This document shows positions 17,101 through 62,764 of a stretch of 64,000 nt of DNA, one piece after another. The DNA lies in assembly GCF_963921235.1 (NCBI RefSeq), contig NC_086097.1:130264001-130328000 (forward strand), written 5' to 3'. The notes beneath the pieces were generated by a model. It did no database searches. It worked only from the letters and a program-made list of their open reading frames with translations, and was not told where the DNA came from. Made by a program: the position numbers and the translations under genes. Origin of the DNA: Mobula hypostoma. Lineage: Eukaryota. How positions within the stretch are numbered: position 1 is the first letter of the stretch; each line of letters starts with the position of its first letter.

Positions 17101-18550
17101 GATACTTACTCAGTGAGTGGTAGGGCACTGAGGAGTGTGATAGAACAAAGGAATCTGTGAATACAGATACATAATTCCTTGAAAGTGGTGTCACAGGGAG
17201 ACAGATTTGTAAAGAAAGCTTTTGGCATAATGGCCTTCATAAATCAATGTCTTGAGTACAAAAGATCAATGTTATATGTTGAAGAAGGGAGAGAAAATCT
17301 GCAGATTCTGGAAATCCAAGCAACGCACCCAAAATGCTGGAGGAACTCAGCAGCTCAGGCAGCATCTATGGAAAAGAATAAACAGTTGATGTTTCAGGCC
17401 GAGACCTTTCAGCAGGACCTAGATCCAATGCAGGCGGTGGAGAGAGAATCCTGGAGCTGTGGAAGCCACTGGGAGAGGGTCCCCAGGTACCCCCCTCATA
17501 GCGGAAAGCGTGGTGCATATAACACAGCTGGAGAAATAGTGGGAGAAGCGGTCGATTGAATGCAAGGACCTGGGGTCCTCAGGGGGTCTGGCTCCAGAAG
17601 CTTGAAAACTGATCTGGAAGCCATGTGGCACAAGATGGTAGCAAAGACATGTTTCCTGTGGTAGTGGGATCGGGTGGCCATATGTTTAAAGAGTCAGAGG
17701 ACAGCAGAGCTCACAGAAGGGGAGCTGTGAGAGAAAGTTTCACTAAACTCCTGTCGAAGGGAAGATTTGAACTTCTTCAGGGTAGGCATTCCTAGAAGAC
17801 ACTTTGCAGTGTAATAGTAGCAGAAAGACGAGAAAATCTGCAGATGCTGGAAATCCAAGCAACACACACAATATGCCAGAGGAATTCAGCAACCTGTTGA
17901 AGGGTCTTGGCCTGAAATGTCAACTGTTTACTCTTTTCCATCGATGCCGTCTCCAGCATTTTCTGTTACTTTGAAGTTAAATAAGACGTTGGTGAGTCTT
18001 AATTTGGATCATTGTGTGCAGTTTTGGTAACCTATAGGAAAGATGTAAACAAGGCTGAAAGAATGCAGAGAAAATTTACAAGTATGTTGCCGGGTCTGAA
18101 GCACCTGAGGTATAAGGAAAAGTTGAATAGGTTATGACTATATTCTTTAGAACATAGGAGAATGAGAGGAGATTTGCTAGAGGTATACAAAATTATGAGG
18201 GGTATAGATAGGGTAAATGCAAGAAAGCTTTTCCCACTGAAGTTGGGTGGGGCTACAACCAGAGGTCATAGCCACAGGGTGAAAAGTGAAAAGTTTAATG
18301 GGAACATGAGGGGAAACTTCTTCACTTAGAGGTCTAGGAGAGTGTGGAATGAGCTGTCAGCACAAGTGGTGCATGCAAACTCAATTTCAACATTCAAGAG
18401 AAGTTTGGATACATGGATAGTATGGATATGGTAGGCTGAGGTCCTGGTGCAGGTCAATGGGGGTAGGTAGTTTAAATGGTTTCAGCATGGACTAGATGGG
18501 CTGAACTGCCTGCTTCTGTGCTGTACTTCTCTCTGACTCTCTGACTCTGT
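17100..18550 (+). mobile_element. CR1 LINE 3' part interrupted by a Penelope insertion
   Basis: KKAFGIMAFINQCLEYK before 17284 continues after 17976 (cattgtgtgcagttttgg...gggaaacttcttcac...tggaatgagctg); ends in (ctctga)n. Confidence 0.75.
17285..17970 (-). mobile_element. Internally deleted Penelope-like element with 5' inversion
   Basis: Minus-strand order: partial pLTR (17825-17890), likely ORF N-terminal remnant (TCLCYHLVPHGFQISFQAS...TTLSAMR), pLTR with HHR-like motif (17290-17419). Inverted pLTR piece at 17893-17970. Flanked by TTGAAG at 17279-17284 and 17971-17976. Confidence 0.7.
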
Positions 18551-22073: not shown

Positions 22074-23480
22074 TAGAAACATAGAAACATGGAAAATAGG
22101 TGCAGGAGTAGGCCATTCAGACCTTCGAGCCTGCACTGCCATTCAGTATGATCACCCTGTACCAGCCTTCCCTCCAGACCCCCTGATCCCTTTAGCCACA
22201 AGGGCCATATCTAACTCCCTCTTAAATATTGCCAGTGAAGTGGCCTCAACTATTTCCTGTGGCAGAGAATTCCACAGGTTCACCACTCTCTGTGTGAAGA
22301 AGTTTTTCCTAATCTCAGTCCTAAAGGGCTTCCCCTTTATCCTCCAACTGTAACCCCTCATTCTGGACTTCCCCAACATTGGGAACAATCTTCCTGCATC
22401 TAGCCTGTCCAATCCCTTTAGGATTTTATACGTTTCAATAAGATCCCCCCTCAATCTTCTAAATTCCAATGAGTATAAGCCTAGTCGATCCAGTCTTTCA
22501 TCATATGAAAGTCCTGCCATCCCAGGAATCAATCTGGTGAACCTTCTTTGTATTCCCTCTATGGCAAGAATGTCTTTCCTCAGATTAGGGGACAAAACTG
22601 CACACAATACTCCAGCTGTGGTCTCACCAAGGCCTTGTACAACTGCAGTAGTACCTCCCGGCTCCTGTACTCGAATCCTCTCGCTATAAATGCCAGCATA
22701 CCATTCGCCTTTTTCACCGCCTGCTGTACCTGCATGCCCACTTTCAATGACTGGTGTATAATGACACCCAGGTCTCGTTGCACCTCCCCTTTTCCTAATC
22801 GGCCACCATTCAGATAATAATCTGTTTTCCTGTTTTTGCCACCAAAGTGGATAACCTCACATTTATCCACATTAAATTGCATCTGCCATGACTTTGTCCA
22901 CTCACCTAACCTACCCAAGTCACCCTGCATCCTCTTAGCATCCTCCTCACAGCTAATACTGCTGCCCAGCTTTGTGTCACCCGCAAACTTGGAGGTGCTG
23001 CATTTAATTCCTTCATCCAAGTCATTAATATATATTGTAAACAACTGGGATCCCAGCACTGAGCCTTGCGGTACCCCACTAGTCACTGCCTGCCATTCTG
23101 AAAAGGTCCCATTTATTCCCACTCTTTGCTTCCTGTCTGCCAACCAATTCTCTATCCACATCAATACCTTACCCCCGATACTGTGTGCTTTAAGTTTGCA
23201 CACTAATCTCCTGTGTGGGACCTTGTCAAAAGCCTTTTGAAAATCCAAATATACCACATCCACTGGTTCTCCCCTATCCACTCTACTAGTTACCTCCTCA
23301 AAAACTTCTATGAGATTCGTCAGACATGATTTTCCTTTCACAAATCCATGTTGACTTTGGCCGATGATTTCACCGCTTTCCAAACGTGCTGTTATCACAT
23401 CTTTGATAACTGACTCTAGCATTTTCCCCACCACCGATGTTAGGCTTACCGGTCTATAATTCCCTGGTTTCTCTCTCTCT
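22074..23480 (-). mobile_element. Young CR1 LINE, 5'-truncated; near-identical to 36385-37808
   Basis: RT ORFs 22580-23509 and 22152-22607 (NYRPVSLTS, DFQKAFDKVPH, GVPQGSVLG, KFAGDT); (TTTCTATG)n tail; one 1-bp frameshift near 22590. Confidence 0.93.
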
Positions 23481-25559
23481 CTCCTTTTATAATAATTAAA
23501 ACAGTTCAATTTTCTATTTACTTTTTCCAGATCGCTACAATTATACGAACAGTTTCATTCTCATTGGTTCAGTTCTTTGTTAATAATGGTGCTGATGCTC
23601 CTTCGTTTTTTTCCCTTTTGCTAACAGCCACTCCTTTGCTTCATTTCCACTGATATTTCTATTCTTTTTTCATCATTGCTTGATAATTGTTATCAATTTG
23701 GGTGGGCCAGCTCTGTGGTGTATTACAAGGGTGGCTTACGCTCTGCAGAGGAAGTCATCTGATGGGCTTGCTGTCACTGAACCTGCCATCCATTGAGTAT
23801 TTCAGTAACCGACCCTTTTTAGCCCATTTCCTCATTCATTTCCTCTGGGATTGTAGTGTGGCCTCAATATCCCAAATACAATTAATTACTGAAATTTCTT
23901 CATGCCGTGCTTTACAGATGTCCATTTTTAAATTGTTGACAATTTCCAAAATGAATAATTTAACATTTGTCCTTTCCTGATGATTATTCCAAACAAAGCT
24001 CTATTATGTAACATGATAAAAAAAAAATTGAACTTGTTATGTTGCGATTTGTATTCCCTGATGCAAGGTTTTGACCTGAAACGTCAATAATTCCTTTCGT
24101 CCCACAAATGCTGCTCAACCCATTGAGTTCCTACAGCGGATTGTTCATTGCTTGTGTTTTGATTGTTCTCTGAATCTTTTAAATATTGAGTTCAGTTGTT
24201 CACAACAGATTGTATTTCCTACCATCTTGCTTCCTTCCATCATCTGAAATTTTCATTTTTGTTTTGTTCAGGGGATGAGGGTGCTGTTGGTTTGGCAGGT
24301 AATTATTGCCTATGAACTGTGTGACTTGATGATAAAGTCAACCTCGTTACCTTAAGTGTAGAGTCATATAGAGGCCTGACTAGATAAGACGGCAGCTTGT
24401 TCTTCTTAAAGATTTGCAGCAAAATGCTGTTATTTTGTTTTTACTCCATTCTAGTGGTTTCATGGTGATAGCCGATATTTAAATTGGTAAATAGGTAAAT
24501 TATTTTATTATTGTTAAATGCATCAAGGTACAGTGTAAAACGTTGTTTTGCATGATATCCATACGGATCGATTCATTACAATGGTGTATTGAGGTAGTGC
24601 AAGGGAAAAGCAATAACATTACGCAGGATAAAGTGTTACAGTTACAGAGAAAGTACAGTGAGGGAGAAAATAAGGTAGAATATGTGGTCAAGGGACTATC
24701 TTATCAAATAAGAGGACCATTCAATTCTCTTATAACAGTGGGATAGATGCCATTCTAGTGGTATGAGCTTTGAGGCTTTTATATTTTCTGCCCAATGTGA
24801 GGGGGAGAAGACAGAATATTAAATTTTAATTCCGATTTATAAATTTACTAGAATGCAACTGTAACATTTGTCATGGTGGGATTTGAGCACTAGCCCAGTA
24901 ACATAACTCAAGCAATTTAATAATTTAAAGTAAATTACATTAATTATTGAAGCACACAAACTACATGAGTTAAGTTACTGGGTTTAGTGACTTGGAGACA
25001 AGTTCAAGTCCTACCATGGCAAATATAAAATTTGAATTCAAGTAGTTTCATAAATCTGGAACTAAAATCTACCATAAGTGATGACCATGAACTATAGGAA
25101 TTACTTATTTATGGACTTAATATTGTTTCTCATTGGTATATTTTCACTTATAAGATATACCATATTCTCTGGTCCCTATAATAATTTTGAAAATCTACCT
25201 TGTTTTTCCATTTATACACATTCTTTTATAAACTCTGTCATGGATTTGGAACTTGTCCATCCCGAGGACAGCACACTTATTATTCTTGGCCTTCACATTT
25301 ATTTTGATATGAAATCTAACTACGCAGGGATCATTAAAATATCAGGGCACCACCTACTTCCAGGTTACCAGTCATTTCTGGTAGCCTGCTGAGTGTTCAA
25401 TCTAATTGAACATCTGTCCTAGAATCCAACTTCAATAACAAATTCTGTGTAAACAGGAAGCTAATGATTTTACACTTTATAATATGCAATGATCTTCTTT
25501 TTATTCTTTTGCAGCTTCTTTCACTTAACAGATCAGATTTCGATCATAAGAAAATAGAA

Positions 25560-29492: not shown

Positions 29493-29716
29493 GACAGTTC
29501 GTCTTTACTAAGCACCCTGTAAAATAGAGAAGACCTTGCTTGCTGAACAATTGAATAATGATTTTCTTGCATTACTATCAAAATTATAGTGGGATACTGA
29601 ACACAATTTACTAGCAAAACCTAATTTATAATTATCATCTGCATATCAACTTCAGAATTGCATTGTAATCATTCTGAAGTAGTTTGTTACTTCTTTGGTT
29701 TACAACATGTAGAGGG

Positions 29717-29943
29717 GCCACAAGCAAGAGAAAATCTGAAGATGCTGGAAATCAAAGTAACATACACAAAATGTTGGAGGTACTCAGTAGGCCAGGCAGC
29801 ATCTATGGAAAAAATTAAACAGTCGAATTTTCAGGCTGACAACCTTCATCAGGTCCTGGTGAAGGGTCTCAGCCTGAAACATTGACTGTTTAATCTTTTC
29901 GATAGATACTGCTGAGTTCCTCCAGCAGTTTGTGTGTATTAAA
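29717..29943. mobile_element. Palindromic Penelope-like insertion (two inverted pLTR arms)
   Basis: Arms are inverted about caggtcctg (~29850-29858); flanked by the 10-bp direct repeat ATGTAGAGGG (29707-29716, 29944-29953). Confidence 0.8.
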
Positions 29944-31237
29944 ATGTAGAGGGTTTTTTTTAACTAAATTATACTGACAGCTAAGCTTAAGGTATTTATG
30001 CTTCAAATAAAAAATATAGTGACTATGGGTTATAAACACAGATGCGGTCAGTATGGGTGTTGAAATTTTAAAATTGGATATGTTCCTACACTGGGAGGTG
30101 CTATATGTTAGCAAGTACAGGGGTTGCTGTAGGATTGTTTGAATCATAGAACATCTCTGCCCTTGGAAGGGGAGGAATGGGCTGTCCCAGATATTAGATC
30201 TCATTTCTGTGACACTAGTGAGATGTAGTGAGCCTACAGAAGAGTGACTGAATATTATGCTACCTGCTGCAAGTGAGGACCAGGGTGGAGGGGTTCTGGA
30301 AAACAATCATAGAGCAAGGAAGGCAGGAAAAGTTGGGATTCAAGAGGCCCAAGTGGACTCAAAGGGAAAAAAACAAAGATGATTGCTTTGTAATTGGGAG
30401 GGTTTAGGAGTATGAGAATTGGCGAGCAGCTTTCTATTCAATTGGTTAAATGTTTAATTCTTACCTTAATGGTCACAGAGCGTCTGAATGCCTAGCTTTA
30501 GCAAAGCCATTTTGTCCTTACTCAGTGTAGCAGTTGGTGCACTGTTGATGAGGAATATGTGGCTGTTTTCCGTATGTTCATTGGTGTGCAGAGATTGGAG
30601 AATAGTTGTGCTTAGAGGTGAGTTATTGCAGGTCTGATCATTTACCTTACACTAGCAGCCCGGTGAAGAGCCGTTGAGGATCTGCAGTCTATTGCATTGT
30701 TCTCTTGGACTTCACATGGCCATGAAGTTCAGTGGTAGATCAGGAGGTCAGGTGCACTGGTGTCTGACCTCTGTCTTGCTTTGGACATAGGTACCTGACT
30801 GCAGTCGGATTGAAGACTGAAGTGCTGAACCACGGGCTTCTTACAAATGGTGGTTCTCCATGGAAGTGCTGACTGAAGACAACTACAGTGCAGCTCAAAG
30901 AATCCAGCAACAGCTGAGGAGGGTCCTGGTAAGTACTGAAGTCATTCATTGGGAATATGCAAATCACCAGACGCAGCAGGAACTCACCTGCTCCTATTGC
31001 ACCAACTTTCCTATTCCATCATACATATCTTGCCTTACATTTTATTATGTTAGATCTGGCTGCTCCCATTAGAAGGACACAAAGGCTTTTGAAAAAGTCT
31101 ACAGAAGAGGTCTATCAAGATTCTGACACAAGATACTGAAGATTCTAAAATCTGAAGCAACATACAAAATGCTGGGGTAACTCAACATGAATTCAGTCTT
31201 GACCTGAAATGTTGACTATCCAATTCACGCACTTGAC

Positions 31238-31780
31238 CTTACCAGGGTGCCGCCTGGATTTCAGAGTCTGAGCTGTAAGGAAAGGTTGGACAAACCTGGG
31301 TTGTTTTCTTTGGATTATCTGAGGCTGAGCAGAGGCATGAGATAGGCTTCTAAAATTGTGTGCAGCATAAACAGGGTAAATAGTTAGTATCTTTCTCCCA
31401 GGGTGGTAGTGTGAAATACTAACGGAAATACCTTTCAGTTCAGGCAGTTAAGTTTAAAGGAGATGTGAGGGAAAGTTTTATTTTTGTTTAACACAGATCA
31501 GTACTTAGAATAGAGTATTGTTCGTTTAGAATGGAGACGAGGAGGAATTTCTTTAGCCAGAGTGTGGTGAATTGTGGAATTAATTGCTCCAGTCAGCTGT
31601 GGAGGCCAAGTTATTGGGTATAATTAAGGTAAATGGTGATAGATTCTCAACTGGTCAGGGCATGAAGGGATATGGGGAGAAGACGGGAGACTGGGGCTGA
31701 GAGGGTAAATGGAACAACTATGATGAAATGGAGGAGCAGACTTGATGGGCCAAATACTATTATGTCTTATGGTCTTAAGG
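31238..31780 (+). mobile_element. Degenerate CR1 3' fragments
   Basis: gaaaggttggacaaacctgggttgttttct...gaggaggaatttctttagccagagtgtggtgaattgtggaat. Confidence 0.65.
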
Positions 31781-34085: not shown

Positions 34086-35975
34086 ATTCTGAATTTCTTA
34101 TTGTCTTGTTACTTGGGATATCTTTTTCTGGATTTCTGTATAATGTGCTCCTTATTTTCCAATGAGTTATCGACCGAAACCCCAAAGGTTTCAGTTGCTG
34201 GTAGCTCTGAAGGAAAGATACATCCCATGATCTATAGTGTCATTAAATGGACAATTCTCCCTTCCCTCGACGTTCCCTCCCCTGAGGTCAAGTGCCTGAA
34301 TCAGCTTTCTGATAACTCAGCAGTGATTCCTAGCACAACATAATCTGGAAAACATTGCTTTTACTGTATGTGCAAAATAGCTTTAAAATATACTCAGACG
34401 GATTCACGGCAACGTATCCAAAATTCAGGATGAACTCAGAAGGTTATACAGCATCCATGTATCAGAGTCCTGATCCAGAATATTGACTGTTTGTGTCCTT
34501 CCACAAATGATGCCTGACCTGCTGAGTTCCTCTGGCATTTTGTGTGTATTGCTCAAGATTCCCAGCTTCTGCAGAATATCTTGTGTCGCAAATGGATCCA
34601 CTATTGAAAATGCATTTCTGAACCTCTCCCCACCAATCCTATTCTGAATTTAAGGCTGTTTCCCTTACTTGTGACTCCTCAATCAATAGCAAGAGTAAGT
34701 AGGTTGGAGGAGAGAAGGATGAAATCTCCCTTCTGAATTTCATAGGCAACTGTAAAATCCTCTAAACATTCCCAACAAAAACATAAATTACGCAATCCCT
34801 CCTCAATGTTCAACTTCCGGTCCAAGGACTTCTGATCGACGTATTCTGTATAGAATATATTTTGCTTCTTTTATGTCTTACTACATTTGATTATCATCTT
34901 GAATGTGATTCTGGAACTGTTGGAGCCTGTGATTTGTAGATCGTTTGCATATTCCAGTGCTCTACAGTCTCCAAGAGGATTCCAAGAGGCAAAAGCAACA
35001 TTTGTGAGCCTCATGACAAGCAGACTGCGAGGTGGGTCAAGCTGATGTTCAATTCTATTTAGCCGATTAAAACGACGAGGGAAATTGAAACATTGAGGGA
35101 AATGCGTAAGGTGAGTGCGGGCTGCCTGCTTCTTGATCGCTAGTGGAATCGCTCTGCTGCTGGAGAGGGAAACTGCCCAGAGCAGGTTACCCAGGTTTCC
35201 TGTGTTTTGGATACGAACTAGAACTATGGACATTTTTTTGCCCGGTCTTATAGTTTTTATATTCTGTGTCTTTCGCCTGATCTTTCTCGTTTTTTTTTGT
35301 CTGCAGGGGGAGTGGGATTGTTGGGTCAATGGAGTCGTATTTTTGTGCAGGGAGGAGGGATTTGGGGGGAGAGTCTGATGATCATGGTGCTGTTCTTTTC
35401 TTTCTTGATTTCGTGGCTATCTGAAGAAGAAGAATTTCAGAGTTGTATACTTTGGTTAAATGAATCATTGAACTTAAGAACTCAAAAACATTCTGGTGAA
35501 GCTATAACACACACTTTTCAAGAATCTGTTTCCTGAAATAATAGATACTAAATATAATCTATTCATACCAAACTATACAAATGGCTTAGACACAGGAAAA
35601 TTGCACATCTCATCACATAAGATCTGAAGGCATTTTGTTTGTGATGCAGTGCCTGATTTTACATAAATCTGGAGAATGATCATTAATCTCTGGTAACCTC
35701 ACACCAGATGTGTTCATCAAGCCTTGGTAAACAAGGAACATGAATGCGCAGCAAGAGCTGACAATTCTAATCTCAGCTGGATTACTACAAAAGTATTACG
35801 GTACAAACAGTATACTGTACTGCAGAACTCATCTAATTACAGTAACAAACCTTCTAAGCTGACCTAAGGAAATGTGTTAACTTTATGTACAGAGCAACAT
35901 ACATTCTAATTTATTTGATTTTCTGATGTTGCCCTTGTTTACTAACTTATCTTAGCCGAACATAGATTAGGGTTA

Positions 35976-36074
35976 ACATACATCAAAGTTGCTGGTGAAC
36001 GCAGCAGGCCAAGCAGCATCTATAGGAAGAGGCGCAGTCGACGTTTCAGGCCGAGACCCTTCGTCAGGACCTTT
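35976..36074 (-). mobile_element. 99-bp Penelope pseudo-LTR insertion with perfect 14-bp TSD
   Basis: ATAGATTAGGGTTA at 35962-35975 and 36075-36088; the insert matches the pLTR family. Confidence 0.85.
36035..36071 (-). ncRNA. Minimal type-I hammerhead ribozyme motif
   Basis: Minus strand GGUC-CUGACGA-AGG-GUCUCGG-CCU-GAAAC-GUC/GACUG: CUGANGA and GAAA boxes, short stem II, palindromic ACGU stem III, GUC cleavage triplet, stem I GGUC:GACU. Confidence 0.8.
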
Positions 36075-36477
36075 ATAGATTAGGGTTACTTGTATTAGTT
36101 AATTGTCAGACGCATACAAATTTCAGAGATGCATGTAGACACATATCCACAGATTTTCCCCAGGTAATGGCTGCCCAGCTCATGTCGAGCCCCTACATAT
36201 GAGCGAGCCTTTTAGACTCCAGCAGGATGGACTTGCCTGCTGCCACGGTGCTGCAGGCATCTGCTGCCATGTGGGAACTTGGTTTGTGCAAGATTTGAAT
36301 GGATGAGTCTCGATGAAGGGTCTCGGCCCAAAACATTGACCGTTTGCTTTTATTCCATAGGTGCTGCCTGTCCTCCAGCGTTTTAACATAGAAACATAGA
36401 AAATAGGTGCAGGAGTAGGCCATTCAGCCCTTCGAGCCTGCACCACCATTTATTATGATCATGGCTGATCATTCAAC

Positions 36478-39400
36478 TCAGAACCCCGCCCCAGCCTTCC
36501 CTCCATACCCCCTGATCCCCGTAGCCACAAGGGCCATATCTAACTCCCTCTTAAATATAGCCAATGAACTGGCCTCAACTGTTTCCTGTGGCAGAGAATT
36601 CCACAGATTCACCACTCTCTGTGTGAAGAAGTTTTTCCTAATCTTGGTCCTAAAAGGCTTCCCCTTTATCCTCAAACTGTGGCCCCTTGTTCTGGACTTC
36701 CCCAACATCGGGAACAATCTTCCTGCATCTAGCCTGTCCAATCCCTTTAGGATTTTATACGTTTCAATAAGATCCCCCCTCAATCTTCTAAATTCCAACG
36801 AGTACAAGCCCAGTTCATCCAGTCTTTCTTCATATGAAAGTCCTACCATCCCAGGAATCAATCTGGTGAACCTTCTTTGTACTCCCTCTATGGCAAGGAT
36901 GTCTTTCCTCAGATTAGGGGACCAAAACTGCACACAATACTCCAGGTGTGGTCTCACCAAGGCCTTGTACAACTGCAGTAGTACCTCCCTGCTCCTGTAC
37001 TCGAATCCTCTCGCTATAAATGCCAGCATACCATTCGCCTTTTTCACTGCCTGCTGTACCTGCATGCCCACTTTCAATGACTGGTGTATAATGACACCCA
37101 GGTCTCGTTGCACCTCCCCTTTTCCTAATCGGCCACCATTCAGATAATAATCTGTTTTCCTATTTTTGCCACCAAAGTGGATAACTTCACATTTATCTAC
37201 ATTAAATTGCATCTGCCATGAATTTGCCCACTCACCCAACCTATCCAAGTCACTCTGCATCCTCTTAGCATCCTCCTCACAGCTAACACTGCCACCCAGC
37301 TTCGTGTCATCCGCAAACTTGGAGATGCTGCATTTAATTCCCTCATCCAAGTCATTAATATATATTGTAAACAACTGGGGTCCCAGCACTGAGCCTTGCG
37401 GTACCCCACTAGTCACCGCCTGCCATTCTGAAAAGGTCCCGTTTATTCCCACTCTTTGCTTCCTGTCTGCTAACCAATTCTCCATCCACATCAATACCTT
37501 ACCCCCAATACCGTGTGCTTTAAGTTTGCACACTAATCTCCTGTGTGGGACCTTGTCAAAAGCCTTTTGAAAATCCAAATATACCACATCCACTGGTTCT
37601 CCCCTATCCACTCTACTAGTTACATCCTCAAAAAATTCTATGAGATTCGTCAGACATGATTTTCCTTTCACAAATCCATGCTGACTTTGTCCGATGATTT
37701 CACCGCTTTCCAAATGTGCTGTTATCACATCTTTGATAACTGACTCCAGCAGTTTCCCCACCACCGACGTTAGGCTAACCGATCTATAATTCCCCGGTTT
37801 CTCTCTCCCTCCTTTTTTAAAAAGTGGAGTTACATTAGCCACCCTCCAATCCTCAGGAACTAGTCCAGAATCTAACGAGTTTTGAAAAATTATCACTAAT
37901 GCATCCACTATTTCTTGGGCTACTTCCTTAAGCCCTCAAGGATGCAGACCATCTGGCCCTGGGGATTTATCTGCCTTCAATCCCTTCAATTTACCTAACA
38001 CCACTTCCCTACTAACATGTATTTTGCTCAGTTCCTCCATCTCACTGGACCCTCTGTCCCCTACTATTTCTGGAAGATTATTTATGTCCTCCTTAGTGAA
38101 GACAGAACCAAAGTAATTATTCAATTGGTCTGCCATGTCCTTGCTCCCCATAATCAATTCACTTGTTTCTGTCTGTAAGGGACCTACATTTGTCTTTACC
38201 AGTCTTTTCCTTTTTACATATCTATAAAAGCTTTTACAGTCATTTTTTATGTTCCCTGCCAGTTTTCTCTCATAATCTTTTTTCCCTTTCCTAATTAAGC
38301 CCTTTGTCCTCCTCTGCTGAACTTTGAATTTCTCCCAGTCCTCAGGTGAGCCACTTTCTCTGGCTAATTTGTATGCTTCTTCTTTGGAATTGATACTATC
38401 CCTAATTTCTCTTGTCAGCCACGGGTGCACTACCTTCCTTGATTTATTCTTTTGCCAAACTGGGATGAACGATTGTTGTAGTTCATCCATGCAACCTTTA
38501 AATGCTTGCCATTGCATATCCACCGTCAATCCTTTAAGTGTCATTTGCCAGTCTATCTTAGCTAATTCACGTCTCATACCTTCAAAGTTACCCCTCTTTA
38601 AGTTAAGAACCTTTGTTTCTGAATTAACTATGTCACTCTCCATCTTAATGAAGAATTCCACCATATTATGGTCACTCTTACCCAAGGGGCCTCTCACGAC
38701 AAGATCGCTAATTAACCCTTCCTCATTGCTCAAAACCCAGTCCAGAATAGCCTGCTCTCTAGTTGGTTCCTCGACATGTTGGTTCAAAAAACCATCCCGC
38801 ATACATTCCAAGAAATCCTCTTCCTCAGCACCTTTACCAAGTTGGTTCACCCAATCTACATGTAGATTGAAGTCACCCATTATAACTGCTGTTCCTTTAT
38901 TGCACACATTTCTAATTTCCTGTTTAATACCATCTCCGACCTCACTACTACTGTTAGGTGGCCTGTACACAACTCCCACCAGCGTCTTCTGCCCCTTAGT
39001 GTTATGCAGCTCTACCCATATCGATTCCACATCTTCCCGGCTTATGTCCTTCCTTTCTATTGCGTTAATCTCTTCTTTAACCAGCAACGCCACCCCACCT
39101 CCCATTCCTTCATGTCTATCCCTCCTGAATATTGAATATCCCTAAACGTTGAGCTCCCATCCTTGGTCACCCTGGAGCCATGTCTCTGTGATCCCAACTA
39201 TATCATAATCATTAATAACAATCTGCACTTTCAATTCATCTACCTTATTACGAATGCTCCTTGCATTGACACACAAAGCCTTCAGGCGCTCTTTTACAAC
39301 TCTCTTAGCCCTTATACAATTATGTTGAAAAGTGGCCCTTTTTAATGCTTGCCCTAGATTTGTCGGCCTGCCACTTTCACTTTTCTCCTTAGTACTTTTT

Positions 39401-39525
39401 GCTTCTACCCTCACTTTACACCCCTCTGTCTCTCTGCACTGGTTCCCATCCCCTTGTTGTGAACTAACCTCCTCACGCCTAGCCTCTTTAATTTGATTCC
39501 CACCCCCCAACCATTCTAGTTTCAA
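36478..39525 (-). pseudogene. CR1 ORF2 (APE endonuclease + reverse transcriptase) with two in-frame stops
   Basis: ORFs 39142-39525, 37936-39105 and 36478-37908 share one frame. Motifs: NARSI, GITETWL, GVVYRPP, MGDFN, SDH, KSPGPDG, DFQKAFDKVPH, GVPQGSVLGP, KFADDT. Confidence 0.93.
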
Positions 39526-39749
39526 GTCTCCTCAGTAGCCCTCGCTAATCTCCCTGCCAGGATATTGGTCCCCCTAGGATTCAAGTGTAACCCGTCCTTT
39601 TTGTACAGGTCACGCCTGCGCCAAAAGAGGTCCCAATGATCCAAAAACTTGAATCCCTTCCCCCTGCTCCAATCCCTCAGCCACGCATTTATCCTCCACC
39701 TCATCGCATTCCTACTCTCACTGTCGCGTGGCACAGGCAGTAATCCCGA
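39516..39749 (-). pseudogene. CR1 ORF1 C-terminus (SGNH hydrolase-like)
   Basis: SGLLPVPR...INAWLRDW...FLDHWDLFW...KDGLHLNPRGTNILAGRL contains the DxxH block V motif. Confidence 0.85.
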
Positions 39750-39784
39750 GTTTTGCGTGTGCTGTTTGAATGGTTGAGTTAAGT

Positions 39785-40580
39785 GCAAAGCTCAAAGTAA
39801 ACTTATGATCAAAATACATGCATGTCAGTCACTGTGTACAACCCTGAGATTCATTTTCTTGCGGGCATTCACAGTCGATACCAGAAACAGAATAGAAACA
39901 ATGAAGGGCTGCACCCAACAGGATGGACAAACAACTAATGTGCAAAAAACAATAAACTGTGCAAATACAAAAAGAAATAAAGAATATCAATAAATAAATA
40001 AGCAATAAACATCAACAACATGAAACGAAGAGTTCCTGAAAGTGAATCCATAAGCTGAGGGAACATTTCAATGATGGGTTAAGTGAAGTTGTGTGGTTAT
40101 CCTCCCGGTTCAAGTGCCTCATGGCAGATGGTTAATAATGGTTCATGAACCTGGTGATGTAGGTCCTGAGGATCCTGTACCTTTTTCCTGATGTCGGCAG
40201 TGAGAGAGCATGGCCTAGATGGTGGGGGTCCTTGATGATGGATGCTGCTTTCTTGAAACAGTGCTCTGTGTAAATATGCGCAATGGTGGGGAGGGTCTTA
40301 TCCATGGCGAACTGGGCTGTATCCACTACTTGTTGTCAGCTTTTCTGTTCAAGGGCATTGATGTTTCCGAACTAAGCTGTGATGCAACCAGTCAATATAC
40401 ACTCCACCACTCATCTATAGAAGTTTGTCAAAGTTTTAGATGACACGCCGAATCTTCACAACCTTCTAAGAAAGTAGAGGCACTGCTATGCTTTCTCGGT
40501 AATGGCTCTTATTTGCTGGACCCAGGACAGATCCACTGAAATGATAACGTCAGGGAATTTAAAGTTGCTGACCCTCCATA
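39785..40580 (-). mobile_element. Rex1/Babar-like LINE 3' fragment
   Basis: HCFKKAASIIKDPHHLGHALSLPTSGKRYR (40132-40326) plus 3' UTR. Confidence 0.75.
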
Positions 40581-41317
40581 TGAAGACTGCCTTGTGGAAC
40601 TACTGTTTAACTAGCACCCTGGTTTAACTATGCTTTCCACTTTAATGGTCTAGATTTTATTTTAAACATATCATAAGGCAGCTACATTTCCAGTTTGAGA
40701 ACTGTTTGGGTTATAAGCAACTTTTAGGAATGGAACTGTCGTAACTTGAAAAGGAACTGCAATTTGTTTTCTAGGCTAACTGCATATTTTTGAAATATCA
40801 TTCATAGATGGTGGAAATTGCCAATAAGGGCAACCTCACCCCCCGTTTATTGCTCATCTCCAAGAATAATTTCTAGTGTTTCTGAAATTTAAAAAGTGGA
40901 TTGATAGAAATTTTTCTCCTGTCCCTCATCTTCCGGGAGACTCAAGGACAAAAGAAACAGGCTCAAATTCAGAAGCAGTTGATTAAGAAGCATACTAACC
41001 ATCACTTCTGGGTGAAATGGCATCCATCAGGAAATTGGTTCAGGAACTTCAAAGCTGATATATATTCATAGCTGATATCAGTCATTTTCATAATGATGTC
41101 ATAAATCAAAGGCTGTGCTTTTCCTTCAGTTGGGGGATTTAGGGGGAAACACCTACAAGCCTCATTGATAACCCAGTGGAAAATTGCCAGTACATTGTTC
41201 AGGGATCAGAAATGAGGATTTGTGCACAGCAACATTAAGCCAGCATCTCCCAGCCTTAGGATCCAACAGCCAGTATTATGCTGATAAACCAGTGGGGGTA
41301 ACTTCAACAATAGTGGC

Positions 41318-41376
41318 AAATAACAGGAATTCTGCAGATGCTGGAAATTCAAGCAACACACATCAACTTTGATGTG
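41318..41376 (-). mobile_element. 59-bp Penelope 3'-tail insertion with terminal fold-back and perfect 14-bp TSD
   Basis: TCAACAATAGTGGC at 41304-41317 and 41377-41390; the insert ends in the hairpin acacatcaa-ct-ttgatgtgt. Confidence 0.8.
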
Positions 41377-42157
41377 TCAACAATAGTGGCCTTTGATTTG
41401 AAAATCAAATCATGGTGTAATATGAAGCTCTTTGATCAGCCCCCATCTCCATGTCATCTGGACCTGATAAAGCCATTTCAGCAGGGAGAAGAGAACTGAG
41501 CACGGGCTCAAATCCTAGGAATCAGTGCAACAGCAATGCACCAAGTACACGCTCTGTATGCAGGAAATGCACAGGACCTGTTTTAACAGAGAGACCCATG
41601 TGTAGAATGTGTAAACACACCAAAAAAAGAAACAAGTCATTCAGATAGCAAAATAAGAGCAAAAGTCACAGAATCTAAAACACAAACTCACAAAATCATC
41701 AAAAGAGTCCAGGCATATTCAGTTCAGCTTAGCGCTGTGTCGTTCATAATCTGCAGGCTGCACCAATCAAAATTGCACAAAATAGCAACATAAAAGGGAG
41801 TGACCAGAAAGCAGAAACACATTATAACGTGAACTACAGAGTCCAAACCACAAACCATGTTGATTAAACCTTGTCCATGACGCTGGTTTCATCCAAAATA
41901 AAAATGCTGGGAGAGAATTTACACATAAAAGGCAACAGAATTGCTGAACACTTTCTATGAAATTAGTAGCTGGCCATTTAGTTAATCATCATATATCTGT
42001 GCTCGTGGGAATTCTGATAGCTTAGGATATTAAGAGATCTGGGACCAGGGATGGAATTGGGATATATAAAAGATATTGCTGAATGGCAGAGCAGGCACAG
42101 TGGGTTGAGTCAGAACATAAGCTGGAGGCAATCAGCAACTGTGGAGGCAAATAATGT

Positions 42158-54500: not shown

Positions 54501-55360
54501 AAATTTCTGACAAATACAGATTGGATTTCCTCCAAAAAACTTCTAATCAGAAACCTTCACAGAGAAACTTTCCTGCCGAGAACAAACACTTCAGAATATT
54601 GTAGAATGAAATAACGGAAAATAAAAGAAATCCATACCTTTCAACTTGGACACATCACTGCGCACCTAAAGGGCAAACTAAAAACAAAAAAAGTCAGGCA
54701 GCACCTGTGGAGAGAGAATCAGAATTAATGTTACAAGTCAATAATTCAACAATGTTCATCCTGCAATCTTAACTCTGGTTCTCTCTCCATAGATGCTGCT
54801 TGATCTGCTAAGTATTCCCTTAATTTTGGTTCAATTTTGGGTATACAATATCCACCATTTTTGCTTTGCTTTTAAAGAAGTATCATATTTTGCTTCAGCT
54901 CCAGCCAGTACACTTAACCAATTTAGATCTTATAATTCGTCCAAATTAGACGTTTGAGGGATTCAAATTACCTTAGCAGAACAACACATCATTTTACCCC
55001 TCTGGCCTTATAATCACCCTGTTTTGCAGTGCCACATTAGAGCAGCTAATTGTTGTAACACGATTTGGGTTTCTCCAGCAATTTACTGCAATCCAGATGT
55101 TACACAGCAGAACATATCTACAATGTTACGTTGATTTCAGGGACTAGATATACAATGAGGAAAGATCTCATTAAACCAGGGATGGAACTGCAAGTAAATG
55201 AGACTGAGCAAAAAAAAAAACTGTGGGTGCTGGAAGCCTTAAATACAAATATAGAAAAAGCCAGAAACATCCAGAAAATTGGACGTCATCTGTGGAAAGA
55301 AAAAGTTAATGTTTCAGAATACTTGTAACATGGAGAGAAGAATTTAAAATATGAATTAAT

Positions 55361-57019: not shown

Positions 57020-58065
57020 GAAAGGACCTACACCTGCTGCAATTTGACTATTGCCATAGTAGGTCTACAGTGGATGCAATCTCAATGGTTCCCCACGCAG
57101 CCTTGGATCACCTGGACAACAGCAATACCTACATCAGTCTGCTGTGATTGCAGCTCAGCATTCAAAACCATCATACCTTCAGTATGAATCAACAAGCTCC
57201 AAAGCCAGTACCTCTGAACCTCCTTCTGCAACTGAATCCTTGACTTCCTTATCAGAAGACCACATTCAGAGCAGGTAGGAAATAACATTTCCTCACTGAC
57301 AATCAACATCGGCGCATGTCAATGATGTGTTCTTAGCCCATTGCCCTACTATCTCCATATCAATGACTGTGTGGCTAGGCACAGCTCAATTGCCATCTAT
57401 AATTTTGCAAGGGTATAACTGTTGTTGGCAGATGGTGATGAGGTGGTGTACAGGAGTGAGATAGATCTGCTGGTTGACCAGTATCGCAACAAAAACCTTG
57501 CACTCAACGTCAGTAAGACCAAGGAACTGATTGTGGACTTCAGGAAAGGGAAGTCAAGAAACAAACACTAGTCCTCAGGTCCCCAGGAGTGGAAAGGATG
57601 AGTGGTTTCAAGTTCCTGGGTGTTAACATCTCTGAAGATCTATCCTGGATCCAACATATTGATGCAATTACAAAGAAGGCACAACAGCCACTATAATTTA
57701 TTAGGTGCTTGAGGAGTCTTGGTATGTCACCACAGACTCTCACAAATTTCAACAGATATACCATCTAGAGCATTCCATCTGGTGTGGAATAGCCATTGCA
57801 CAGGATCAGAAAAAGCTGCAGAAAATTGCAAATTTGGCCAGTTCCAACATGGGCACTAGCCTCCCAGTATCGAGGACATCTTTAAAAGGTAGTGCCTCAA
57901 AAAGGTGACATCTGTCATTAATCACCCTAATTAGCCAGGACATGTCCTCTTCTCATTGCTACCATCAAGGAGGAGGTAAGGAAGCTTGAAGACACATGCT
58001 CACCATTTCGGGAACAGCTTCTTCCCCACCGCTATCAGATTTCTGAATGGACAATGGAACCATGC
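57020..58065 (+). mobile_element. Rex1/Babar-like LINE fragment (many stops and frameshifts)
   Basis: Same subfamily as 60841-61983 (gactgtgtggctaggcacagctcaa, ttcaagttcctgggtgttaacatctctgaagatct, GNSFFPTAIRFLNG). Confidence 0.8.
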
Positions 58066-58070
58066 ACATT

Positions 58071-59468
58071 ACTTCTCTTGGTCCACTTCTGACATCCTTC
58101 TCCCCTTTCCTGACCTCTCTGTCTCCATACTTGTTGACAAACAGTCTACCAATATATTTTGTAAACCTACCAATTCCCATGGCTATCTTGACTAAATCTG
58201 TTCCCAACATGTCTCCTGTAAAAACGCCATTCCCTTTTCTCCGTTCCTTCATCGCCACCATATCTGTTCCCAGGATGCAGCTTTCTATTCCAAGATATCA
58301 GAGATGTCCCCCTTCCTCAAAGAATGAGGTTCCCCTTGCTCCACTGTTAATGCTGCCCTCACTCGCATCTCCTTCATTTCTCGGACATCCGCGCTCACCC
58401 CATCTTCTGCCACCTTAACAGGGAAAGAGTTCGTCTTGTCTTCACCTACCTCCCATGAGCCTCTGCAACCAGCACACCATTCTCTGCAACTTCTGCCATC
58501 CTCAACGGTAAACTACCACTAAACACATCTTTACCTCCCCCCAACTCTCCACTTTCTGCAGGGATCTCTCCCCTCCATGATTCCTTGTCTATTCGTCCTT
58601 TCCCACTTATCTCCCTTCTGGTTCTTATCCCTGCAATGTCTGAAGTGCTACTCCTGCCCATTCACCTCCTCCCTCAAATCTTTTCAGGGAAAGAAATCCT
58701 TTCAGGTGAGGCAATACTTCACCTGTGAATCTGTTGGGGTTGTCTACTGTATCTGATGCTCCCGATACAGCCTCCTCTACATTGGTTAGACCTAATGTAG
58801 ATCAGGGAATTGCTTTGTTAAGCACCTCTGCTCCATCCACAAAAAGTGATTTTCTTGATGACCAACCATTCAAATTCCTATTTCCATTCCCGTTCCAACA
58901 TGTTAGTCCACGGCCTCTTCTTCTGCCACAATGAAGCCACGCTCAGGGTGGAGGAGCAGCACCGCATATCCATCTAGGTAGTCTCCAATCTGATGGCATG
59001 AACATCGATTTCTCCAAGTTTCTGTAAGTTTTCCCCCTCCACCTTCCCTCTTCTTCAACTCACCACTCTGGCTTCTTACCTCTTCTCCTCACCTCCCTAT
59101 TGCCTCCCCTGCTGCTTCTCCTCCTTCCCTTTCTTCCATGATCCATTCTCTTCTTCTCTCAGATTCCTTCTTCTCCATATTTTTGCCTTTTCCATTGATC
59201 ACCTCCCAGCTTCTTACTTCATCGCCCCCCCCTCCCCTCCCCTACCCACCTGGGTTCCCTTATCACTTTCTAGCTTGTCCTCCTTCCCCTTCCCCCACCT
59301 CCTTATTCTGGCTCTCCTTCTTCCTTTCCAGTCCTAATTAATGAAGGGTCTCGGCCCGAAACATCAGCTGTTTATTCATTTCCATAGATGCTGTCCGACT
59401 TGCAGGAGTTCCTCCAACATTTTGTGTGCATTGCTCTGGATTTCCAGCATCTGCAGAATCCCTTGCAT
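58071..59468 (+). mobile_element. Penelope-like element 3' half: RT C-terminus, GIY-YIG endonuclease, pseudo-LTR
   Basis: LPFPDLSVSI...TNIFCKPTNSHGYLD; FQVRQYFTCESVGVVYCI*CSRYSLLYIG*T (~58700-58793); pyrimidine tract; degenerate HHR at 59329-59370. Confidence 0.85.
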
Positions 59469-60840: not shown

Positions 60841-61983
60841 AGAATCAGAATCAGAATGTGACGTGAAATTTGTTAACTAAGCAGCAGTTCAATGCAATAC
60901 ATAATCTAGCAGAGAAAAAATAATAAATAACAATAATAATAAATAAACAAGTAAATCAATTACGTATATTGAATAGATTTTTAAAAAGTGCAAAACAGAA
61001 ATACTGTATATCAAGAAAAAAGTGAGGTAGTGTCCAAGCTTCAATGTCCATTTAGGAATCGGATGGCGGAGGGAAGAAGCTGTTCCTGAATCGTTGAGTG
61101 TGTGCCTTCAGGCTTCTGTACCTCCTACCTGATGGTAATAGTGAGAAAAGTGCATGCCCTGGGTGCTGGAGGTCCTTAATGATGGACACTGCTTTTCTGA
61201 GACACTGCTCCCTAAAGATGTCCTGGGTACTTTGTAGGCTAGTACCCAAGATGGAGCTGACTAGATTTACAACCTTCTGCAGCTTCTTTCGGTCCTGTGC
61301 AGTAGCCCCGCACCAGACAGTGACGCAGCCTGTCAGAATGCTCTCCACAGTTTTTGAGTGTATTTGTTGACATACCAAATCTCTTCAAACTCCTAACAAA
61401 GTATACCAGTTATCTTGCCTTCTTTATAACTACATCGATATGTTGGGACCAGGTTAGATCCTCAGAGATCTTGACACCCAGGAACTTGAAGCTGCTCACT
61501 CTCTCCACTTCTGATCCCTCTATGAGGATTGGTACGTGTTCCTTTGTCTTACCCTTCCTGAAGTCCACTATCAGCTCTTCTGTCTTACTGACGTTGAGTG
61601 CCAGGTTGTTGCTGTGGCACCACTCCACTAGTTGGCATATCTCACTCCTATACGCCCTCTCATCACCACCTGAGATTCTACCAGCAATGGTTGTATCGTC
61701 AGCAAATTTATAGATGGTATTTGAGCTATGCCTAGCCACACAGTCTTGAGTATATAGAGAGTAGAGCAGTGGGCTAAGCACACACCCCTGGGGTGCACGA
61801 GTGTTGATCATCAGCGAGGAGGAGATGTTATCACCAATCTGCACAGATTGTGATCTTCTGGTTAGGAAGCTGAGGAACCAATTGCAGAGGGAGGTACAGA
61901 GGCCCAGGTTCTGAAACTTCTCAATCAGGATTGTGGGAATGATGGTATTAAATGCTGAGCTATAGTCGATGAACAGCATCCTG
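60841..61983 (-). mobile_element. Rex1/Babar-clade LINE, 5'-truncated
   Basis: ORF 61410-61979 ([38 protein letters not shown]) and ORF 61052-61378; (ATTCTG)n tail at ~60841-60857. Confidence 0.88.
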
Positions 61984-62764
61984 GCGCTTCTACAATCTGA
62001 AAATTATAAATCTTTCTACTTAGAGTCTGTTGCAGCAGCAGTAGTAAACTTGTCCATAAAATTCACTGGTAAAGGCCTTGGTCACATGCATGTTATCAGT
62101 GGTCAGCTGCAATGCATTTTCACAATTCAATCTTACCAGAAAATTTTTAACAAATTTTGAAAAAGAAACAATATTGTAATAATTCACAATGTTGTTGCTT
62201 CAGTTATGCAAATATAAGTTTTGGAATTCATCAAATCTTCAGATGGTAGTTACAGCGAAAGTAGCAGAGATTTACCAGAGTTTCTAGGAGTCAGGATAAG
62301 CACTATTTGATTAATGAATGCTTACGCACTTCATGCAGTCTCTGGGCTTGGAAAAGATTTCTTTCATGGGTCATTGGCTGGACTGATACATGGAGAATGC
62401 CAACATGAGTGAGCTGATGGATGGTCCAGTAATTATCTAATGTGTTCAGGATATACAGAAGAGATAAATATATAGAGGGTAGAAGAGCAGGACAAATGCA
62501 TTTATAATTTGAAAAAACTGGCCTGCTGAGTTCCTCAGCACCTCATGTGTGTATTGTCTCCACATTCATTGCAGAAGACTAACTAAATCATTAATTTTCA
62601 AATTTGATTTTAAAACTAACCAGTAGACATTTTATTGTGGTATTTAATTGATATGAGTGACATTGGGTGTGTACCCTGGAATTTTGCATAAATAATCACC
62701 CAAGTTGTATACACCATAAAAATAAAAACTTGCATTACATTTTGGAATACCCATTGTCTTAGCT

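Follow-up and report, generated by a model that had tools for sequence, protein, structure and literature searches.

The 99-bp insert at positions 35976-36074, read on the minus strand, very probably arose by target-primed reverse transcription as a short copy of the end module of an endonuclease-positive Penelope-like element (PLE), from uncut RNA, and is most likely inert. It is one of very many short copies of Penelope ends, a pattern that has been in print since 2014, and it is of value as an example that is clean and dated: a close relative has the empty site, and the hammerhead was copied whole and uncut. The insert lies in a stretch of 64,000 nucleotides, referred to below as the window. 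The insertion is made up of the following parts:

35962-35975, no strand: left copy of the target-site duplication (TSD), identical to 36075-36088 and present as a single copy at the empty site of run X5
35976-36074, minus strand: 99-bp insert, a short copy of a Penelope-like end module (pseudo-LTR) that lacks the optional tail; absent in organism B
35976-36035, minus strand: 60 nt of pseudo-LTR sequence that follow helix I, finishing at the short 3' end of the family; loose ends at 35975
36036-36071, minus strand: predicted minimal type I hammerhead motif, from a base-by-base reading that fits the description of minimal hammerheads in PMC4209133
36071-36074, minus strand: four junction bases that differ from the family majority, as judged from the loose-end consensus
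36075-36088, no strand: right copy of the TSD, identical to 35962-35975 and present as a single copy at the empty site of run X5

The two 14-mers that enclose the 99 bp are identical, as the original prediction had it, and cannot be extended beyond 14 bases. Exact 14-mer repeats spaced 60-250 bases apart give six rows in the window, three of which fall in a GA-rich array, compared with three in 50 Markov sequences. Four public runs (of 24 listed) were aligned to positions 35300-36300, namely X1, X5, X9 and X11, which correspond to organisms A, B, C and E, respectively; their contigs are DNA-type or unlabelled, and X1 is possibly from the source sample. In X1, contigs cover both the left and the right junction (n=2) with 0 differences, and the joints listed include no empty-site joint, which does not imply homozygosity since contigs drop variants. 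In X5, a contig joins 35961 to 36075 and skips 113 bases, with 14 letters that fit on either side, as expected of an empty site, and its flanks differ at 16 of 758 bases. Because a relative that is only ~2% divergent (organism B) has a clean empty site, the TSD is real and the insertion is recent, as had been proposed from the letters of the window. On the best reading, the insertion arose in the lineage of organism A after its split from organism B, or is still polymorphic. X9 (organism C) and X11 (organism E) also lack the insert, with 38/636 and 67/750 flank differences, respectively. The spanning contigs of X1, the empty site of X5 and the Markov controls for chance leave practically no room for an assembly artefact or a chance repeat. 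At the very place of the insertion, organisms C and E have 79 letters where the window has 8 (35954-35961); either this spot had already received an earlier insertion, or a deletion took place in the common ancestor of A and B.

The numbers of contigs that align to the 1-kb stretch are 45,353, 24,575, 10,288 and 12,826 for X1, X5, X9 and X11, respectively, with the summed depth peaking on the insert, although part of these contigs falls on another repeat at 35334-35469 and depth does not equal copy number. Those at least 99% alike number 9,515, 2,945, 465 and 533 in the same order. These counts suggest that the subfamily of the insert is young in organisms A and B. Pattern scans for further copies with flanks gave 0 in metagenome contigs and 0 in viral contigs.

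The hammerhead motif can be divided, on the minus strand, as follows:

36068-36071, minus strand: helix I, 5' arm
36061-36067, minus strand: hammerhead core CUGACGA
36048-36060, minus strand: stem II region, 13 nt
36040-36047, minus strand: GAAA-CG-UC
36036-36039, minus strand: helix I, 3' arm

The conserved core is complete (C3-U4-G5-A6-N7-G8-A9, G12-A13-A14-A15.1 and U16.1-H17); cleavage is predicted after nucleotide 35 of the insert, between 36040 and 36039. The core bases and the cut position given by the original prediction are therefore correct. The loop of helix III is absent; the palindromic positions 15.2-16.2 (A-C-G-U) are predicted to self-pair over 4 bp (-3.1 kcal/mol) and would allow a dimer to form. 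Helix I consists of three Watson-Crick pairs and one G-U pair, because the 5' junction of the insert falls inside it and brings in bases foreign to the family. Stem II comprises four pairs, two of them G-U, and a bulged A, the unpaired base after A9; it can pair without being the favoured fold. The pair 10.1-11.1 is G-U or A-U in the insert, not G-C, and a T at 11.1 is also present in 8/14 older copies. The G10.1-C11.1 pair is highly conserved, not absolute, in the minimal hammerheads of PLEs (PMC4209133). A descriptor of the minimal hammerhead has this motif as its sole match in the window, compared with one match in 200 order-1 Markov sequences of 64 kb. The Rfam hammerhead search that had been proposed as a check was negative: nothing in the window attains the gathering score of any Rfam family, and the hammerhead families give no match even at E<=10, a threshold at which one chance RT-19 match lies beside the insert and none on the motif. 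No match is to be expected, because the motif lacks helix III. A tRNA-derived SINE was considered and rejected, since the insert starts at the hammerhead and no tRNA-like head with Pol III boxes was found in the window (ARAGORN 0, Rfam 0; a weak test for decayed heads).

We compared the insert with related sequences in the window using a profile built from six window copies. The search returned 27 matches at E<0.01 in 22 loci, including the six seeds, and 0 in four control sequences. The 3' ends fall at model position 127 or later in 10/27 matches, at 92-114 in 13/27 and earlier in 4/27. The insert belongs to the short class, and other copies of the family continue for ~40-50 nt beyond its 3' end. 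An optional 3' tail is known in PLEs (PMC8557442, in excerpt), and for an anole element it is reported to correspond to two start sites of reverse transcription (PMC11167929, in excerpt). The original prediction saw in the insert only the ribozyme and a tail of ~60 nt; this layout stands, with 60 nt downstream, but an element composed of the ribozyme alone does not, since the insert is a copy of a Penelope-like end module. Two family members outside the insertion bear directly on its origin:

41304-41390, minus strand: sister insertion with an exact 14-bp TSD around a 59-bp insert without a hammerhead, identified by its TSD and by profile comparison; it serves as an internal control
58034-59465, plus strand: older relative with a body, namely the end of a decayed Penelope-like ORF, a pyrimidine tract of ~300 nt, and the hammerhead module with its tail

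In the older relative, the ORF remnant (58034-59021) contains the C-terminus of a reverse transcriptase (RT), a Cys linker and a GIY-YIG-like domain, all decayed. Its read-through translation matches P0005 with 46% identity (tblastn E=2e-51). The remnant also matches P0004, which itself has a weak GIY-YIG match (E=0.002, below the cut-off); the five stop-free pieces of the remnant and its read-through have no Pfam match of their own. A CX2-5CxxC linker before the endonuclease is visible in P0001 and P0005. A Cys linker in this place is given as a feature of Neptune/Nematis elements (PMC8557442), and it points to the ORF-linked relative being of the Neptune/Nematis type, to judge from the protein sequence. 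The end module at 59332-59465 follows the ORF remnant with only the pyrimidine tract between them, and the insert is colinear with this module. The proposal of a minimal type I hammerhead like those of Penelope elements is borne out. The two copies are ~60% identical (59/99). A full-length parent of the young subfamily of the insert was found among 0/1051 candidates in a search for longer proteins with the ORF remnant read-through, which is weak evidence. This missing parent, the modest identity of the ORF-linked copy and the lack of Pfam matches in the remnant count against the insert being a PLE retrocopy. A literature search brought up no paper dealing specifically with this family in sharks or rays, and repeat databases or preprint supplements may list it.

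The sister insert at 41304-41390, which is apparently of the same young subfamily as the 99-bp insert, consists of a 10-nt inverted piece and the end of the tail. The same machinery thus produces very small inserts between TSDs, whether or not they carry the ribozyme. A TSD search over the 22 loci recovered two exact 14-mers and one 13-mer with one mismatch, the remainder lying within the null. The 13-mer encloses a head-to-head copy pair at 29704-29953, a score reached by 1/150 random places, and the junction palindrome of this pair has its centre within the 5' arm of helix I. Similar inverted pairs are seen at 17830-17962, 31132-31267, 34401-34582 and 54692-54829. Published de novo PLE insertions have a median length of 128 bp through 5' truncation (PMC9977147), and PLEs flanked by TSDs of 8-10 bp, together with their empty sites, are described (PMC3846280).

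How could such a short copy be made? We infer from the TSD and the orientation of the insert that the GIY-YIG endonuclease of the element would nick the plus strand after 35975, making the plus-strand 3' end of the left TSD copy the putative primer for reverse transcription. The RT would prime on this nicked end and start at the inner of two preferred sites on the pseudo-LTR RNA, and the tail would be left out because of this inner start; the two classes of 3' ends are observed, while the mechanism is taken from PMC11167929. The enzyme next copied the 60 nt and then the whole hammerhead. The template was uncut at GUC, because all of the core that precedes the cut site is present in the insert. 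Unprocessed RNA is likewise reported as the main insertion substrate of an anole PLE in vitro (PMC11167929, in excerpt). Finally, the RT would stop in the 5' arm of helix I, and the product would be joined to the second nick 14 bp away via four bases foreign to the family; the ends of this step are observed and its chemistry is putative. Loose-end consensus sequences at 36070 begin with TG on the plus strand in 4/4 runs, where the insert has four other bases. The bases at 36071-36074 may be untemplated, cap-derived or the product of fold-back. The same 7-nt odd palindrome at helix I opens three copies (36067-36073, 17414-17420 and 29851-29857) and is not the family majority; it is perhaps a 3-bp fold-back or a cap-derived G. 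The hammerhead itself would be a passenger here, serving the RNA of the parent element as a dimer or with the help of protein.

The TSD of the insert holds one TTAGGG, as the original prediction noted, and the putative primer end amounts to one and a half telomeric repeats, of the G-rich strand and with the right polarity. Priming on a telomeric repeat, as in the endonuclease-deficient Athena/Coprina elements, or healing of the site by telomerase would account for such an end. The hexamer is, however, pre-existing host DNA and not element sequence, because the 14-mer stands once at the empty site of organism B. The insert also has no reverse-complement telomeric repeat of its own, and the hexamer is absent from the TSD of the sister copy and from the loose-end consensus at 35975. 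With 24 hexamers in the window compared with 34.8 expected, some TSDs among many thousand copies will hold one. We therefore regard a telomeric origin of the insertion as extremely improbable.

A further feature of the family is the position of its 5' ends. Of 12 copies picked by hand because they extend as far as the beginning of the hammerhead, two continue into the body, two have a weak short match and eight have no upstream element sequence. This is more clustered than random truncation and would also fit a short non-autonomous master, and it counts against the retrocopy reading. Loose ends at 36069-36070 agree poorly (0.35-0.40, compared with 0.55-0.59 at 36035-36036), and most of the listed template jumps depart within a few bases of 36070, with short jumps at 36067-36070; both sets of data are biased, since the reference leaves the family at 36070 and contigs collapse repeats. 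Head-to-tail joints that lead 34 bases back (36037-36070) and repeat the 35-nt hammerhead core occur in 4/4 runs, with 1-3 contigs each, and these also count against a simple retrocopy. Loci with such head-to-tail cores would carry the dimer partner in cis.

In the ORF-linked relative, the tract between the ORF end and the hammerhead (59024-59332, ~300 nt) is 84% pyrimidines and ends with CAG at helix I, where an acceptor-like signal ranks 8/8740 among the AG sites of the window. The candidate donor is weak (rank 734/6739), and a spliced junction was seen in no copy. The tract is a possible pseudo-LTR intron, and the intron of Drosophila Penelope ends at the 5' end of helix I according to PMC4209133 and PMC2377424. 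A defined RNA end at helix I is accordingly a fair hypothesis as far as the sequence goes; we judge the chances of a real RNA 5' end at this point to be about even, the alternative being enzyme drop-off and fold-back. Should the same clustering at helix I be seen across the genome, it would tell where the template RNA truly has its 5' end, would bear on the role of the PLE hammerhead in vivo and would show the origin of retrozymes from PLE ends. A more extended and decidedly tentative idea, which we think possible but doubtful, is that in this lineage the dominant mobile form, in place of a randomly truncated element, is a defined RNA of 100 or 150 nt beginning at helix I of the uncut hammerhead. 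Its 5' end would be set by processing or by a start site that coincides with the acceptor-like signal, and the RT would run off this end and sometimes jump templates, yielding tandem hammerheads. If true, complete ribozyme units of the dimer type would be spreading through the genome by the many thousands and would offer a snapshot of retrozyme birth from Penelope ends, in which polymorphic or lineage-specific copies would be natural tests.

The same clustering raises the question of whether the insert belongs to a family of its own, as had also been proposed, i.e. whether it is the monomer of a non-autonomous, retrozyme-like or SINE-like element whose short master RNA starts at the hammerhead and borrows Penelope enzymes. 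The 5' ends of eight of the 12 copies, the short template jumps and the hammerhead-duplicating joints would all be in line with such a master, and retrozyme monomers derived from PLE ends have been described, one chondrichthyan genome included (bioRxiv 10.64898/2026.07.22.740005, in excerpt). On the other hand, the window contains no tandem array, and the tandem joints occur on 1-3 contigs per run out of tens of thousands. The first base of the unit lies 35 nt before the cut, while a self-cleaved monomer would start at the cut or be circularly permuted. Moreover, at 59332 this module is found joined to an ORF, and a ribozyme is missing from the sister insertion. A separate family thus appears improbable to us, and a copy of a PLE end remains the preferred reading of the insert.

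Could this copy nevertheless cleave a host transcript of the minus strand, as the original prediction suggested, and so act as a self-cleaving switch? Every base of the core is present, and the very many sister RNAs could conceivably supply a dimer partner in trans. When 100 nt of flanking sequence is included in the folding, the pairing probabilities rise to ~0.1 for helix I and 0.28 for stem II. In the insert alone, by contrast, both are at or below 0.008, and the active-like fold (-6.5 kcal/mol) loses to a rival hairpin (-11.8 kcal/mol). For two copies together, a 6-bp duplex across the cut site (-10.3) is favoured over the 4-bp duplex of helix III. The insert folds no better than its shuffles (z -0.07). 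Because the older majority sequence has helix probabilities of at most 0.07, no better than those of the insert, a disfavoured active fold is a family trait in these models, which leave out tertiary contacts and proteins. Published results point the same way: a schistosome minimal hammerhead showed no cleavage as a monomer and weak cleavage as a dimer (PMC4209133), and the ribozyme of an anole PLE required its protein (PMC11167929). As for a host transcript, 300 of the 302 non-repeat ORFs (at least 55 aa) were scanned and contained no host-gene domain, LINE domains being the only matches, and a crude splice scan revealed no convincing exon in the window, although a long intron is conceivable. 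The insertion is, in addition, too young for evidence of conservation. Cleavage of a host transcript by this copy is consequently very unlikely.

An intact core is found in 1/27 family matches. The original prediction named core boxes conserved no better than the flank as an outcome that would refute it, and on the decayed copies this check goes against the prediction: in 14/26 of the other matches, chosen as covering the motif, 116/145 core cells and 398/479 downstream cells match the majority, and the copies appear to decay neutrally. Compared with the majority of 18 older matches, the young insert differs at 3/35 positions in the hammerhead and 15/58 downstream (p=0.057). This is a hint that the core is better kept between subfamilies, and would suggest a constraint on master elements only. 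As far as the folding models can tell, the ribozyme in this single copy is most likely inert; it looks intact because it is young, and would be expected to decay like its older neighbours.

Several other elements lie close to the copies discussed above. A young CR1-like LINE at 36385-39800 (minus strand), with long open RT, endonuclease and esterase frames, is inserted into the end of an older copy of the Penelope-like family at 36307-36383, and a shorter copy of it, ~93-97% alike, is found at 22078-23495. Read-through from this LINE was considered as a source of minus-strand transcripts and rejected, since by eye the element appears 5'-truncated within ORF1 and a promoter is unlikely. Two older LINE copies (57152-58079 and 61020-61985), in inverted orientation and 73-78% alike, flank the Penelope-like remnant. 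At 1007-1083 two exact copies of a 14-mer, spaced 63 bases apart, enclose 49 bp that have no relation to the Penelope-like family, and this pair may be part of a DNA transposon end.

The insert was also compared with known systems. With the minimal hammerheads of PLEs (PMC4209133), in which helix I has 4-5 bp, it shares a type I core without loop 3, the palindromic 15.2-16.2 positions, a short helix I and, in one register, the extra base after A9. Those motifs are mostly single ones from truncated PLEs, with thousands per genome (Cervera and De la Pena 2014, PMC4209133). There are differences, however: the stem II of the insert has 3-4 bp and is not long, its 10.1-11.1 pair is not G-C, and its helix I is clipped by the 5' junction.

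The likeness to endonuclease-positive PLEs of the Neptune/Nematis type (PMC8557442, PMC3846280, PMC9977147, PMC11167929) extends to the very short inserts, the variable TSD and the empty site, to the optional tail from two RT start sites, to the inverted pieces in sister copies and, in the ORF-linked relative, to the Cys linker before the endonuclease. The TSD of the insert, on the other hand, is 14 bp long, whereas the rotifer examples have 8-10 bp; furthermore, the 5' ends of the family are clustered at helix I and not spread, and the parent of the subfamily was not recovered. The endonuclease-deficient Athena/Coprina elements (PMC8557442) resemble the insert in the hammerhead near the 3' end and in the telomeric hexamer at the putative priming end. 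In contrast to these, the hexamer of the insert belongs to the host target, the site is interstitial and has a TSD, and the relatives of the insert carry a GIY-YIG-like domain.

Animal retrozymes are defined by tandem units that bear hammerheads (PMC7229834; bioRxiv 10.64898/2026.07.22.740005), and the 2020 definition asks for a canonical type I hammerhead with helix III and loop-loop contacts (PMC7229834). The non-LTR retrozymes of animals share with the insert the non-coding nature, the type I hammerhead, the kinship to PLE pseudo-LTRs and a TSD longer than 4 bp. The insert differs from them in being a single unit, in starting upstream of the cut and in carrying a minimal, not a canonical, hammerhead. 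It was rejected as a retrozyme in the strict sense, as it is a single copy without two consecutive hammerhead units and the window holds no such array. Retrozymes are described as derived from PLE ends (bioRxiv 10.64898/2026.07.22.740005), and the insert is a PLE end of the kind held to give rise to them.
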